From contig CAVSQJ010000002.1 in assembly GCA_963730095.1 (NCBI GenBank), positions 1,923,779 through 1,987,778 of the forward strand: DNA of 64,000 bases, written 5' to 3'. Source of the stretch: an uncultured Acidobacteriota bacterium (GTDB lineage Bacteria > Acidobacteriota > Vicinamibacteria > Vicinamibacterales > SCN-69-37). Positions 1,715 through 4,653 of this stretch are shown in pieces. Below the pieces are notes generated by a model. The model made no database searches. It was not told the origin of the DNA and saw only the letters and a list, made by a program, of their open reading frames with translations. Each line of letters opens with the position of its first letter. The stretch's first letter is position 1. A program made the position numbers and the translations under genes.

Positions 1715-1751
1715 GGGGTCTGACCCTGGTGGCGTAAGCCGGGTCTGACCC
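1715..1751 (+). repeat. GGGTCTGACCC double-palindrome element, copy 1
   Basis: Sequence GGGGTCTGACCC-TGG-TGGCGTAAGCC-GGGTCTGACCC, 25 nt downstream of the infA stop. Same architecture as the copies at 4615-4653 and 55590-55723 (reverse complement). Confidence 0.85.
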
Positions 1752-1799
1752 TGATCCGGCCGGTTCGAAGCGATCGCCGGACAGAGAGGTAGTACAACG

Positions 1800-1914
1800 A
1801 TGAAAGTCCGGGCGTCGGTGAAGACGAATTTGTGACAAGTGCAAGATCGTGCGCCGGCAGGGCGTCGTGCGCGTGATCTGCCCGAATCAGAAGCACAAGC
1901 AGAGGCAAGGATAG
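1800..1914 (+). CDS. rpmJ: 50S ribosomal protein L36 (frame broken by one surplus nt at ~1828)
   Basis: MKVRASVKT then, in the next frame, [27 protein letters not shown]. In-frame TGA at 1833-1835. The span is 115 nt, i.e. 38 codons plus 1 nt. RBS-like AGAGAGG upstream. Confidence 0.85.
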
Positions 1915-1916
1915 CC

Positions 1917-2294
1917 ATGGCACGCATTGCAGGTGTCGATCTGCCGCGCACGAAGCGCGTCGAGATCGGACTGACCTACATCTACGGCATCGGCCGGAAG
2001 CGGTCGAACGACATTCTCGGCAACGCCGGCGTCAATCCGGACATCCGCGTCAAGGATCTGTCCGAAGAGGACGTTCGGAAGATCAGCCGCGTCATCGAGG
2101 AGCAGGGCCGCGTCGAGGGCGACCTGCGCAAGGAGATCTCGATGAACATCAAGCGGCTCGTCGAGATCGGCAGCTACCGCGGGTCGCGGCATCGCCGCAA
2201 TCTGCCGGTGCGCGGCCAGCGGACGCGAACCAACTCGCGCACCCGGAAGGGCCCGCGCAAGGGCACGATTGCCAAGAAGAAGGTGGAAGTCTAA
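1917..2294 (+). CDS. rpsM: 30S ribosomal protein S13
   Basis: Protein reads [26 protein letters not shown]...[17 protein letters not shown] at 1917 lies inside the listed ORF 1839-2294. Confidence 0.95.
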
Positions 2295-2749
2295 TGGCGA
2301 AGGAAAAACCGCAGGCGGATGCCGCGGCCGTTCCGGGTGCTGAGCCCGGCAAGGCGTCGACAAAGAAGAAGAAGACGTTCAAGAAGCGCGGCGAGAAGCG
2401 CGTCGTCCATCACGGCTTCGCGCACATCCACGCGTCGTTCAACAACACGACCGTGACGATCACCGACACGGACGGCAACGTCATCGCGTGGTCGAGCGCC
2501 GGCGGCATCGGCTTCAAGGGATCGCGCAAGGGCACGCCGTTCGCGGCGACCCAGGCCGCGATGGCCGCGGGCAATGCCGCGAAGACGTACGGCCTGCGAT
2601 CCGTCGAAGTGCGGGTGAAGGGACCAGGCGCGGGCCGTGAGTCGGCGATTCGCGCGCTCCAGACGGTCGGCATCGACGTGAAGTCGATTCGCGACATCAC
2701 GCCGATTCCGCACAATGGGTGTCGGCCACCAAAGAGACGTCGGGTCTAG
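2294..2749 (+). CDS. rpsK: 30S ribosomal protein S11
   Basis: 151-aa ORF with ...[18 protein letters not shown]...[13 protein letters not shown]...[20 protein letters not shown] overlap with rpsM. Confidence 0.95.
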
Positions 2750-2760
2750 AGGGATCCAGT

Positions 2761-2849
2761 GTGAAGTTCGAAGTATGAAGTTCGAAGTCGCGGAGTGCCA
2801 CGCGGGCAATCTGAACTTCAAATTTCGAACTTCTAACTTCGAACTTAAC
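2761..2849. repeat. heptamer tandem-repeat hairpin (GAAGTYN arm / complementary AACTTC arm)
   Basis: Left arm 2761-2790 reads GAAGTTC GAAGTAT GAAGTTC GAAGTCG. Right arm 2811-2849 reads TCGAACT TCTAACT TCGAACT. Fills the rpsK-rpsD spacer and is lower in GC than its surroundings. Confidence 0.85.
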
Positions 2850-2867
2850 GAGCGATAGAGGTAACGA

Positions 2868-3498
2868 ATGGCAAGGTATATCGGACCGGTGTGCCGGCTC
2901 TGCCGGCGCGAGGGCATGAAGCTCTTCCTCAAGGGCGAGCGGTGCTACACGGACAAGTGCGCGATTGAGAAGCGCAACGTGCCGCCCGGCCAGCACGGCC
3001 GCGCGCGCAAGGCGAAGATGGTCGGCTACGGCGTGCAGCTGCGCGAGAAGCAGAAGGTCAAGCGCACCTACGGCGTCCTCGAGAACCAGTTCCGCCGCTA
3101 CTTCGAGGCGGCCGATCGGACCAAGGGCATCACGGGCGAGCTGCTGCTGCAGATGCTCGAGCGCCGGCTGGACAACGTGGTCTACCGGCTCGGGTTCGCG
3201 ACGTCGCGGCCGCAGGCGCGGCAGCTCGTGCGCCACGGGCACTTCACGGTCAACGGCAGGAAGGTCGACATCCCGTCCTACTCGGTGCGGCATGGGCGAC
3301 GTCGTCGCCGTGCGCGCGTCGAGCGGGGAGAACCCGACGATCCAGCACGCGACCGAAGAGGTGAAGGGCCGCGGCGTCCCCGAGTGGCTCTCGCTCGAGC
3401 CGGCCGGGCTCTCGGGCCGCGTCGCGGCGCTCCCGACGCGCGAGCAGATCAATCTGCCCGTGCAGGAACAGCTCATTGTGGAGTTGTATTCCAAGTAG
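2868..3498 (+). CDS. rpsD: 30S ribosomal protein S4 (frame broken by one surplus nt at ~3291-3296)
   Basis: N-terminal part is in ORF 2868-3593 ([26 protein letters not shown]...IPSYSVR). C-terminal part is in ORF 2965-3498 ([10 protein letters not shown]...[11 protein letters not shown]). The span is 631 nt, i.e. 210 codons plus 1 nt. Confidence 0.9.
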
Positions 3499-3520
3499 AA
3501 ACTTCTAACTTTTCTTCTCC
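3499..3520. repeat. single-arm AACTTC-type short repeat
   Basis: AAACTTCTAACTTTTCTTCTCC lies directly after the rpsD stop. Same unit family as 2811-2849 and 54171-54210. Confidence 0.6.
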
Positions 3521-3592
3521 GTCGTCGGCCCGCAGCCCTCAGACCTGCGGCGGGAGGCCGGCGACGTATTCAGCAGGTCTGATCTCGCTGTA

Positions 3593-3612
3593 GCTCGCGC
3601 GAAAGCGCGAGC
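3593..3612 (+). other. perfect 8-bp GNRA-capped hairpin in the rpoA 5' leader
   Basis: GCTCGCGC-GAAA-GCGCGAGC, 30 nt upstream of the rpoA ATG. Function unknown. Confidence 0.35.
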
Positions 3613-3642
3613 GAAGGCGGATGAATCGAAAGGACGTTCGCG

Positions 3643-4623
3643 ATGTTGTGGAAGGGTTTTCAGCGGCCGAAGCGGCTGGAGTTCGAGCGGGAGACATTGA
3701 ACGAGCGGTTCGGGCGCTTCTACGCGCAGCCGTTCGAGCGGGGTTTCGGCACGACGGTCGGCAACGCCATGCGGCGCGTGCTGCTGTCGTCGATTGAGGG
3801 CGCCGCGGTGACCGCGGTGAAGATCGAGGGCGTGCTCCACGAGTTCTCGCCGATCCAGGGCGTCGTCGAGGACGCGACCGACATCATCCTCAACCTCAAG
3901 CAGATTCCGATCCTGGTGCACACCGATCAGCCGAAGACGCTGACGCTGCGGGCGACGAAGCCCGGCGAGGTGCGCGCGCGCGACATCTCGGCCGACGCCG
4001 ACCTCGAGATCCTCGAGCCGGACGCCCACATCGCCACTGTGAGCGACGGCGGCAAGCTCGAGATGGAGCTGCGCATCAAGCGCGGCCGCGGCTACGTCTC
4101 GGCGGACCGCAACTTCGACGAGGACCTCGGCATCGGCTGGATTCCGATCGACTCGGTCCACTCGCCCGTGAAGAAGGTCAACTACGTCGTCGACGCGGCG
4201 CGCATCGGCCAGACGACCGACTACGACAAGCTGACGCTCGAGGTGTGGACGAACGGCGCCGTCTCGCCGCGCGACGCCGTGTCGCTCGCGGCCAAGCTGA
4301 TTCGCGACCACTTCACGATCTTCGTCGGGCTCGACGAAGCGGCCGATCAGCCGCTCGACGCGGCCGGCGACGTTCCGACCTCCGGTCTGAACGAGAACCT
4401 CGACAAGAGCGTCGAGGAGCTCGAGCTCTCCGTGCGGTCCTACAACTGTCTGAAGAACGCGAACATCCGGACGATTCGCGAGCTCGTGCAGAAGAGCGAA
4501 GGTGAGATGCTCAAGACCAAGAACTTCGGCCGCAAGTCGCTGAATGAGATCAAAGACATTCTCGCGACGATGGGGCTGAGCCTCGGCATGCGCCTCGATC
4601 AGCCGATGGCGGATGGGGTCTGA
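3643..4623 (+). CDS. rpoA: DNA-directed RNA polymerase subunit alpha
   Basis: 326-aa ORF. N-terminal domain reads ...[23 protein letters not shown].... C-terminal domain reads ...[23 protein letters not shown]...[11 protein letters not shown]. Confidence 0.97.
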
Positions 4624-4653
4624 CCCCGCCTGGCGTCAGCCGGGTCTGACCCC
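4615..4653 (+). repeat. GGGTCTGACCC double-palindrome element, copy 2
   Basis: Sequence GGGGTCTGACCCC-GCC-TGGCGTCAGCC-GGGTCTGACCCC. The rpoA stop codon (4621-4623) is the TGA inside the first palindrome. Confidence 0.85.

Follow-up and report, generated by a model that had tools for sequence, protein, structure and literature searches.

A stretch of 64,000 nucleotides from an uncultured Acidobacteriota bacterium (contig CAVSQJ010000002.1, positions 1,923,779 to 1,987,778; this whole stretch is referred to as the window) contains four copies of a hairpin element with a core of about 38 nt. One copy is located between infA and rpmJ (copy 1), one between rpoA and rplQ (copy 2), and a tandem pair lies between rimP and nusA (copies 3 and 4). 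The element belongs to a previously uncatalogued family that is restricted to soil Acidobacteriota, namely Vicinamibacterales and their relatives. According to the analysis presented here, this family is probably a dispersed, duplicating repeat of intercistronic regions, similar to the repetitive extragenic palindromes (REPs) and the interspersed repetitive units of mycobacteria (MIRUs), and we infer that its function is exerted in the mRNA. Acidobacteriota are among the most abundant soil bacteria, and the non-coding repeats and post-transcriptional control of this phylum are, to our knowledge, hardly explored.

The four copies had been recognized in an earlier inspection of the letters without database searches (the sequence-only reading). 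All of them were recovered in the same places, each in sense orientation relative to transcription. Half-sites with at most one mismatch yielded 12 strand-hits in the window, compared to a mean of 1.46 and a maximum of 5 after shuffling, and a profile search across the 64 kb revealed no further credible copy. An isolated match to the small stem-loop sequence, TGGCGTCAGCC, at 52594-52604 of the plus strand, inside infB on the opposite strand, has no arms and a profile E-value of 2.2, and was rejected as a chance match. Copy 1 is composed of the arm GGGGTC-U-GACCC, the bulge UGGU, the stem-loop GGC-GUAA-GCC and the arm GGGUC-U-GACCC(U). In copy 3, both arms (CGGGUC-U-GGCCC and GGGCC-U-GACCCG) differ from those of copies 1 and 2 by compensated changes. 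Copies 3 and 4 are bounded by the rimP stop codon (55728-55730) and the nusA start codon and form a unit duplication, in which the 5' motif GTGTGAGCG is part of each copy. As the sequence-only reading had pointed out, the TGA stop codon of rpoA (4621-4623) is situated within the first arm of copy 2 (GGG GTC TGA). The last three sense codons of rpoA (Gly-Gly-Val) and its stop codon are therefore element sequence.

The strain of the window recurs with identical copies in several metagenomes, and the runs that contain window sequence are mostly soil metagenomes. Copy 2 is identical in four other metagenome contigs, and the rimP/nusA spacer of 169 nt is unchanged in two other contigs of the strain. 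No presence/absence or copy-number polymorphism of the element occurs among the same-strain DNA contigs, and the boundaries of the element thus cannot be fixed by this route. A scan of one genome per species (185,579 species) with a strict pattern retrieved 27 stretches with 29 copies, all in nine metagenome-assembled genomes (MAGs) of Acidobacteriota, two of which are labeled Vicinamibacterales, one Solibacteraceae and the rest by phylum only. The carriers harbor 1 to 12 strict copies each. The hits include no cultured species. A slightly looser pattern gave at least 120 stretches in JGI metagenomes, and several long metagenome contigs contain three sites in 51-138 kb, corresponding to about one site per 17-46 kb. 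The numbers of sites (154), copies (167) and profile hits (218) used below are those among the matches listed. Viral contigs contained no pattern matches, and carriage by phages was thus not found. The window gave no hits at the gathering thresholds of Rfam 15, and a permissive Rfam search with 151 nt around copy 1 reached at best 17 bits against a cut-off of 69, a chance match to a plant microRNA model. A literature search found no description of such repeats in Acidobacteria, and the half-site string was encountered there only in unrelated primer sequences.

Structure and covariation of the hairpin

The two GGGYCTGRCCC halves of the element are the arms of a single hairpin and not independent palindromes. 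The fold consists of a 6-bp helix, a U·U mismatch, 5 bp, a bulge of 4-5 nt in the 5' strand, a 3-bp stem and a G-N-N-A loop, which is mostly GNRA. For the analysis of covariation, 167 copies taken from public genomes and metagenomes were compared. At the stem pair that the search patterns left free, 121 copies harbor G-C, 23 U-A and 20 A-U, and three copies show a non-pair. This position is Watson-Crick paired in 98% of the copies, whereas shuffling of the partners gave a mean of 57% and at most 67%. G-C closes the stem in 123 copies and C-G in 19, and no pairing extends outside of this closing pair. The RNAalifold consensus agrees with arm-to-arm pairing, and further compensated changes are present in diverged copies, such as GGGACTG...CTGTCCC, GGGGCCTG...CTGGCCCC and a flipped small stem, GCC-GUGA-GGC in place of GGC-GNNA-GCC. 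The covariation substantiates the proposal of the sequence-only reading that the halves pair with each other around a small GGC-GNNA-GCC stem-loop. The predicted energies of the fold are -25.6, -27.9, -33.0 and -33.2 kcal/mol for copies 1 to 4.

The same reading had offered two dimer-type operator sites in DNA as a second interpretation, and in copies 1 and 2 the halves indeed look palindromic. However, this symmetry is lost in 144 of the 167 copies (121 of G-C type and 23 of U-A type), while the Watson-Crick pairs between the arms are kept. Examples are GGGTCTGGCCC as well as GGGTCTGTCCC, which pairs with GGGACTGACCC. As the halves are not symmetric in these copies and still pair with each other, the interpretation as two operators is disfavored. 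One hint is specific for the sense strand. GNRA occurs in 80% of the loops and only on this strand, where the G and the A of the loop were fixed by the search pattern and the purine at the third position was left free. The bulge is conserved as a YG-N-N-U type.

Gene junctions, orientation and flanks

It had further been suggested that the element is a signal common to translation operons. This is true of the window only. In the relatives (reference MAGs, Pfam) the hosts are functionally mixed, catabolic operons occurring besides ribosomal ones, with occupied junctions at nuoA|nuoB, nuoC|nuoD, nuoE|nuoF, accB|accC, scpA|scpB, dnaX|ybaB, PP-loop ATPase|dtd, rpsC|rplP and infA|rpmJ. Other sites are located upstream of hisS, of an aldehyde dehydrogenase and of a 3-hydroxyacyl-CoA dehydrogenase gene, and downstream of a MoxR gene; 20 neighbors were confirmed by Pfam. 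The factor common to the sites is the junction of co-transcribed genes and not translation.

Among the 154 non-redundant sites, copies between co-directional genes are in sense orientation in 57 cases and in antisense in two (one-sided binomial probability about 3e-15). The upstream neighbor lies on the strand of the element in 82 called cases versus 10, and approximately 22 additional sense open reading frames (ORFs) enter the element. About 19 of the 154 sites are placed between convergent genes. The sequence-only reading had proposed a genome-wide census, in which hundreds of copies in random orientation and context would point to a generic REP. The context proved to be generic indeed, at 1 to 12 strict copies per MAG, but the orientation is far from random. 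In the window, copies are present on both strands while the GC skew, although weak, holds one sign. This indicates that orientation tracks transcription and not replication.

The position of stop codons was analyzed for the 105 sites with a sense upstream gene. The upstream stop precedes the stem by 0-2 nt at 27 sites and by 3-10 nt at 21 more, so that it is found within 10 nt at 48 sites (about 46%); at roughly 21 sites it is located inside the element or its 3' flank. Stops in two or three sense frames are provided by 129 of the 154 copies, and 103 have no stop in an antisense frame. The sense-frame stops originate from the GUAA or GUGA loop, from CCUGACC of the 3' arm and from CUAG or CUGA directly after it. 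A conserved peptide through the element was considered and rejected, since the frames differ among copies. The 5' motif often reads NTGA (ATGA, GTGA or TTGA), as would suit an internal ORF of the MIRU type, and in some copies the TGA serves as the stop codon of the upstream gene. Yet the frame through the hairpin varies, because the linker differs by 1-3 nt between copies, and no conserved ORF exists.

A long form of the element spans about 100 nt between the stop and the start codon. It is present at 39 of the 154 sites, among them copies 1 and 4. Its 5' flank carries a conserved motif, GAAATGAG in copy 1 and GTGTGAGCG in copy 4, with the consensus (C)GTTGA-RA-TGAG in relatives; the TGA of this motif is the stop codon of the upstream gene in loci L008, L021, L062 and L068 of our collection. 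The hairpin is followed by a tail and, in most long-form copies, by a second motif, GTTGA-Y-TGAGAG (...TGAYTGAGAG), from which 8-15 nt lead to the start codon. Thus, with both flank motifs and the tail in the long form, the whole spacer from stop to start is element sequence, including the purine-rich ribosome-binding stretch. The flank motifs are rare away from the hairpin: in 810 kb, TGA[CT]TGAGAG was found eight times beside elements and once elsewhere. Short forms are followed by the consensus ACCCC-C/T-T-R-R.

Consensus folding and manual inspection revealed no consistent structure in the flanks and tail of the long form. For a small flank hairpin, GYUC-[GAWGCN]-GARC, part of the copies show compensation (GUUC/GAAC, GCUC/GAGC, GGUC/GAUC) and others mismatches (GUUC/GAUC, GUUC/GUAC), and pairing of the 5' GAGC with GYUC of the tail is possible through one-sided changes only; we propose neither of the two. 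A tRNA-like origin of the GGTTCGAA tail was rejected, as ARAGORN finds nothing and the geometry of a 7-nt T-loop is absent. Short tandem heptamers (GGCAGAA, GGGCAGA, GGGCAAT, GGGCAAA) often adjoin the element (L005:1086-1110, L017, L020, L024, L022 (-6099), L065, L081 and L107), and runs of GACAC or GACAG pentamers often separate it from the next start codon. These heptamers and pentamers add another level of simple repetition to the element junctions.

The proximity of the stem to the upstream stop codon (0-2 nt in 27 and within 10 nt in 48 of 105 sites) could be taken as a sign of translational coupling, in which the terminating ribosome melts the hairpin and thereby keeps the next gene dependent on upstream translation despite a spacer of 50-140 nt in place of a tight overlap. 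Often the two host genes encode subunits of one complex (nuoA|B, nuoC|D, nuoE|F, accB|C, scpA|B, rpsM|K, rpsC|rplP), empty junctions are overlapping stop/start pairs, and a model of RNA unfolding by ribosomes is established elsewhere (PMC12548453). Partition-function folding was therefore applied to 33 junctions, with the ribosome footprint at the stop codon forced to be single-stranded. The predicted accessibility of the Shine-Dalgarno sequence and start codon was unchanged by this constraint (0.49 versus 0.50 in short forms, 0.45 versus 0.46 in long forms). The hairpin is closed in itself and does not mask the ribosome-binding site, and the approximately 19 sites between convergent genes leave nothing to couple. 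Coupling is thus considered improbable as the function of the element.

A GC-rich and stable stem-loop directly after genes, in some cases between convergent genes, also resembles a transcription attenuator or a terminator without U residues. However, no U tract follows the element and the organism possesses canonical U-tract terminators. One of these was called in a terminator scan behind rplQ, where the rpsM-rpoA-rplQ transcription unit truly ends, whereas the element was not called. In addition, genes downstream of the element within the host operons are essential (rplP, rplQ, nuoB/D/F, accC). In the absence of a U tract, with essential co-transcribed genes downstream and a canonical terminator after rplQ, the element is not a terminator. 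An attenuator of this kind, or the operator pair for a dimeric repressor discussed above, is accordingly the most improbable of the explanations considered.

Duplication, variable occupancy and relationship to known repeats

Of the neighboring copies at distances of up to 300 nt, 49 cases are head-to-tail arrangements and one is inverted; the periods span 30-91 nt and mostly fall within 50-67 nt. In DNA run X4, two contigs join hairpin copies, matched to 4615-4653 of the window, via 25-26 nt (G-A/C-A/G-GCCGACGCGGTTTGAA-G/A-TGAGC). This join belongs to a tandem array at another locus or in another strain, and the tail leads directly into the TGAGC motif of the next unit.

Orthologous junctions differ in occupancy. 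The rpsM|rpsK junction is an overlapping stop/start in the window but comprises 99 and 107 nt with the hairpin in the metagenome relatives L073 and L127. For nuoA|nuoB an 8-nt overlap is present in L008 as opposed to 141 nt with two copies in L015, and nuoE|nuoF reads TAATG in L008 and is filled in L019. Transcript contigs of relatives harbor 9 or 19 unrelated nt instead of the element at rpoA|rplQ. The fetched loci (810 kb) yielded 218 profile hits, of which 45 (about a fifth) display uncompensated changes or truncations. All five DATEGZ copies share the bulge AUGG/AUGC, even where orthologous junctions elsewhere carry other subtypes. This is the behavior of a duplicating and homogenizing repeat family and not of an ancient cis-regulatory RNA. 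At other nuo junctions, namely nuoC|nuoD and nuoD|nuoE of L015 (minus-strand orientation) and nuoD|nuoE of L019, unrelated inserts of 88-130 nt were observed, one with the inverted repeat GATGAAGGAAGGTGAAG...CTTCACTCCCTTCAT and others with repeats of the GAGCGAGCG type. The hairpin family is thus probably one of several intercistronic repeat families in these genomes.

The decayed copies (45 of 218), the genome-specific subtypes and the variable occupancy, together with the lack of a strand-specific wobble signal, would also be expected of purely selfish DNA. In such a case the hairpin would be the single-stranded recognition structure of an HUH/Y1 transposase (IS200/IS605, RAYT-like) or another mobilizing enzyme, and the sense bias would result from the insertion mechanism and from the removal of junction-breaking copies by purifying selection. 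Y1 transposases of the TIRYT group have been reported from Acidobacteria (PMC3733652). However, orientation tracks transcription on both strands, whereas a transposase acting on single-stranded DNA of the lagging strand would track replication. Inverted pairs make up one of 50, the GTAG and CGTC tags are lacking, no transposase gene was seen among the inspected neighbors of copies, and GNRA loops, at 80%, are confined to the sense strand. The inverted pair of L105 was examined as a transposase carrier and rejected: by sequence, its enclosed ORFs encode two paralogous hydrophobic (membrane-like) proteins and one glycine/serine-rich protein, none of them transposase-like. The element does not behave as a miniature inverted-repeat transposable element either, as pairing does not continue past the closing pair and the flanking direct repeat GTTGA-N-TGAG is identical at all loci, so that it belongs to the element rather than being a target duplication. 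Purely selfish DNA without a role at the RNA level is regarded as unlikely.

REPs mainly follow ORFs, at junctions of unidirectional or convergent genes, and may provide a stop codon (PMC3733652). The element shares these features and resembles REP and BIME sequences in being a GC-rich imperfect palindrome in the range of 20-40 nt that is present in many copies, almost all of them intergenic. It is located downstream of ORFs, often touches or supplies the stop codon, varies widely in family size among genomes, and presumably functions as a hairpin in transcribed RNA. Among the three options listed in the sequence-only reading, a REP-like element is hence the closest, while a regulator site of translation operons did not hold. 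Several differences exist nevertheless. Tagged REPs have been described in eight phyla, which do not include Acidobacteria (Di Nocera et al. 2013, PMC3733652). The element has no unpaired GTAG or CGTC tag, and on its 5' side there is simply a stop codon or TGAG as a motif; GAC[GA], which is complementary to CGTC/TGTC, was seen in just 40 of 115 short-form 3' flanks, at varying offsets. Head-to-tail dimers are absent or negligible among REPs (PMC3733652), which predominantly form inverted dimers, compared to 49 head-to-tail and one inverted for the element. Moreover, the stem of the element is broken by a U·U mismatch and a bulge of 4-5 nt and capped by a GNRA mini-hairpin, and no association with RAYT genes was seen among the neighbors in the fetched stretches. 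The strict sense orientation, the abutment to stop codons and the head-to-tail arrays set the family apart from REPs.

With MIRUs the element has in common units of 40-100 nt between operon genes, a single orientation, head-to-tail tandems and presence or absence at orthologous sites. MIRUs insert at gene junctions while preserving the expression of the neighbors, and they carry a short ORF that is coupled to the downstream gene via a 4-nt overlap (PMC12548453). The element, in contrast, has no conserved reading frame and is defined by a covarying hairpin; it occurs in another phylum and shows no sequence similarity.

ERIC/IRU and Correia (NEMIS) elements affect how stable the adjacent transcripts are via RNase III or RNase E, sometimes depending on orientation. 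They are 100-150 nt long, possess terminal inverted repeats and occur in both orientations, and Correia elements cause a TA target duplication. Like these, the element is an intergenic repeat that would be co-transcribed with its neighbors and fold in the mRNA. Unlike these, it was found to have neither terminal inverted repeats nor a target duplication, and about 95% of its copies are in sense orientation. An E. coli REP within 15 nt of a stop codon, as studied by Liang, Rudd and Deutscher in 2015, reportedly leads to ribosome stalling, trans-translation and less upstream protein. The position of about 46% of the sites, with a stop within 10 nt of the stem, is comparable, a likeness of position only.

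Proposed role in mRNA and additional features of the window

The preferred reading of an intercistronic repeat acting in mRNA can be outlined as follows. The family would spread into tight gene junctions by insertion or duplication and survive there because its sense orientation is harmless, with stops in two or three frames and, in the long form, a purine-rich ribosome-binding stretch for the next gene. Sense bias, multi-frame stops and the built-in ribosome-binding stretch fit such persistence through harmlessness, which has also been proposed for MIRUs (PMC12548453). Within the polycistronic mRNA, the element is predicted to fold into a GNRA-capped hairpin of about -25 to -33 kcal/mol. By analogy with E. 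coli REP hairpins, this hairpin most likely would be a barrier to 3'-to-5' exonucleases or a processing punctuation, which would set the relative stability of upstream versus downstream cistrons. Transcription, folding and the effect on decay are what we infer here. Most likely, the element is not a terminator, a ligand-sensing switch or a regulator-specific switch.

Several observations weigh against this reading. The z-scores of the fold relative to dinucleotide shuffles are only -1.5 to -2.3. Non-canonical pairs show no preference for the sense strand, with 17 of G·U type versus 14 of A·C type; as the former are not more common, covariation cannot separate an RNA hairpin from a hairpin in single-stranded DNA. 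No target-site duplication could be defined, and no transposase or mobilizing gene was among the neighbors inspected, which were taken from fetched regions of at most about 15 kb (8 kb in the case of the reference MAGs). No RNA run was found that contains the nusA leader, and the metatranscriptome contigs on rpoA-rplQ are from relatives lacking the element and provide evidence for the empty site only. Gene calls in metagenome loci were made with the author's own ORF picker based on the GC content at third codon positions, and the Pfam check covers only 20 neighbors. Finally, the single-stranded tail G-N-TCGA-N-GC and the 5' motif are strongly conserved, which a plain barrier to decay does not account for.

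This conservation of unpaired parts, which also includes the YG-N-N-U bulge and the GNRA loop (80%), would be explained if the element were the operator RNA of a lineage-specific post-transcriptional regulon, in which housekeeping operons are coordinated by a protein that recognizes the GNRA-capped stem together with the 5' bulge and the tail G-N-TCGA-N-GC. Such a regulon would be a wider version of the shared regulator site suggested in the sequence-only reading. The strictly sense orientation and the uniform bulge type within a genome, as expected for co-evolution with one factor, agree with this possibility. It is nonetheless quite improbable, as the host genes have no common function, junction occupancy varies among related genomes, many copies are degenerate, genomes differ in copy number, between one and a dozen or more, and Rfam contains no match. 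We know of no candidate binding protein for the hairpin. A combination, in which hairpin, bulge and tail constitute a protein-recognized RNA module on a self-propagating intercistronic cassette of stop codons, hairpin and ribosome-binding stretch that was co-opted in Vicinamibacterales and relatives for subunit stoichiometry or segmental decay of housekeeping operons, with its spread linked to transcription or translation instead of replication, appears rather improbable; it would amount to mobile punctuation at the post-transcriptional level.

The family provides a compact sequence marker for uncultured lineages related to Vicinamibacterales. Junctions with and without a stable hairpin (nuo, rpsM|rpsK, rpoA|rplQ) represent a natural series that can be used to test the effect of intercistronic structure on coupling and mRNA decay. 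Caution is required in annotation, since the element supplies stop codons and can lengthen or shorten gene calls, as at rpoA. The features of the window are compiled in Table 1.

Table 1. Positions of the hairpin copies, their flanks and comparison sites in the window
Feature	Position	Strand	Remarks
5' flank motif GAAATGAG of the long form, copy 1	1706-1713	+	Conserved in alignments of 20 and 39 long-form copies
Hairpin copy 1 (infA/rpmJ)	1715-1752	+	infA stop ends 1690; rpmJ ATG 1800
3' tail GGTTCGAAGCGA, copy 1	1762-1773	+	Consensus G-N-TCGA-N-GC; TCGA core nearly invariant
Purine-rich end of the long form (ACAGAGAGG...)	1781-1799	+	Likely rpmJ ribosome-binding region; rpmJ ATG 1800
Empty rpsM|rpsK junction TAATG	2292-2296	+	Overlapping stop/start; comparison site, not element
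Hairpin copy 2 (rpoA/rplQ), short form	4615-4653	+	rplQ ATG 4667
3' flank of copy 2, TTAGAGGATCCAT	4654-4666	+	GAGGA Shine-Dalgarno for rplQ (ATG 4667)
Canonical intrinsic terminator, about 55 nt after rplQ	5302-5339	+	13-bp GC-rich stem, then TCTGTTTTTT
Tail AGTTCAAAGCAG and GTTAGCTGAAAGAAGGA ahead of nusA ATG (55558)	55563-55594	-	Aligns with other long-form copies
Head-to-tail unit duplication, rimP/nusA	55590-55722	-	66 nt, spacing 67 nt, 95% identity
Hairpin copy 4, adjoining nusA	55600-55638	-	Profile and sequence
Hairpin copy 3, first of the rimP/nusA tandem pair	55667-55705	-	Profile and sequence

Single-base insertions in the window break rpmJ (at about 1825), rpsD (at about 3291) and probably map (one site, 678-1469). 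Same-strain contigs omit one base at 1825 and one at 3291, and the offset of the window to locus L001, in which L36 (37 aa), S4 (209 aa) and Map (263 aa) are intact, moves from 640 to 642 between the two elements. Judged from these sequences, the breaks in rpmJ, rpsD and map look like indel errors of long-read assembly and not like pseudogenes.

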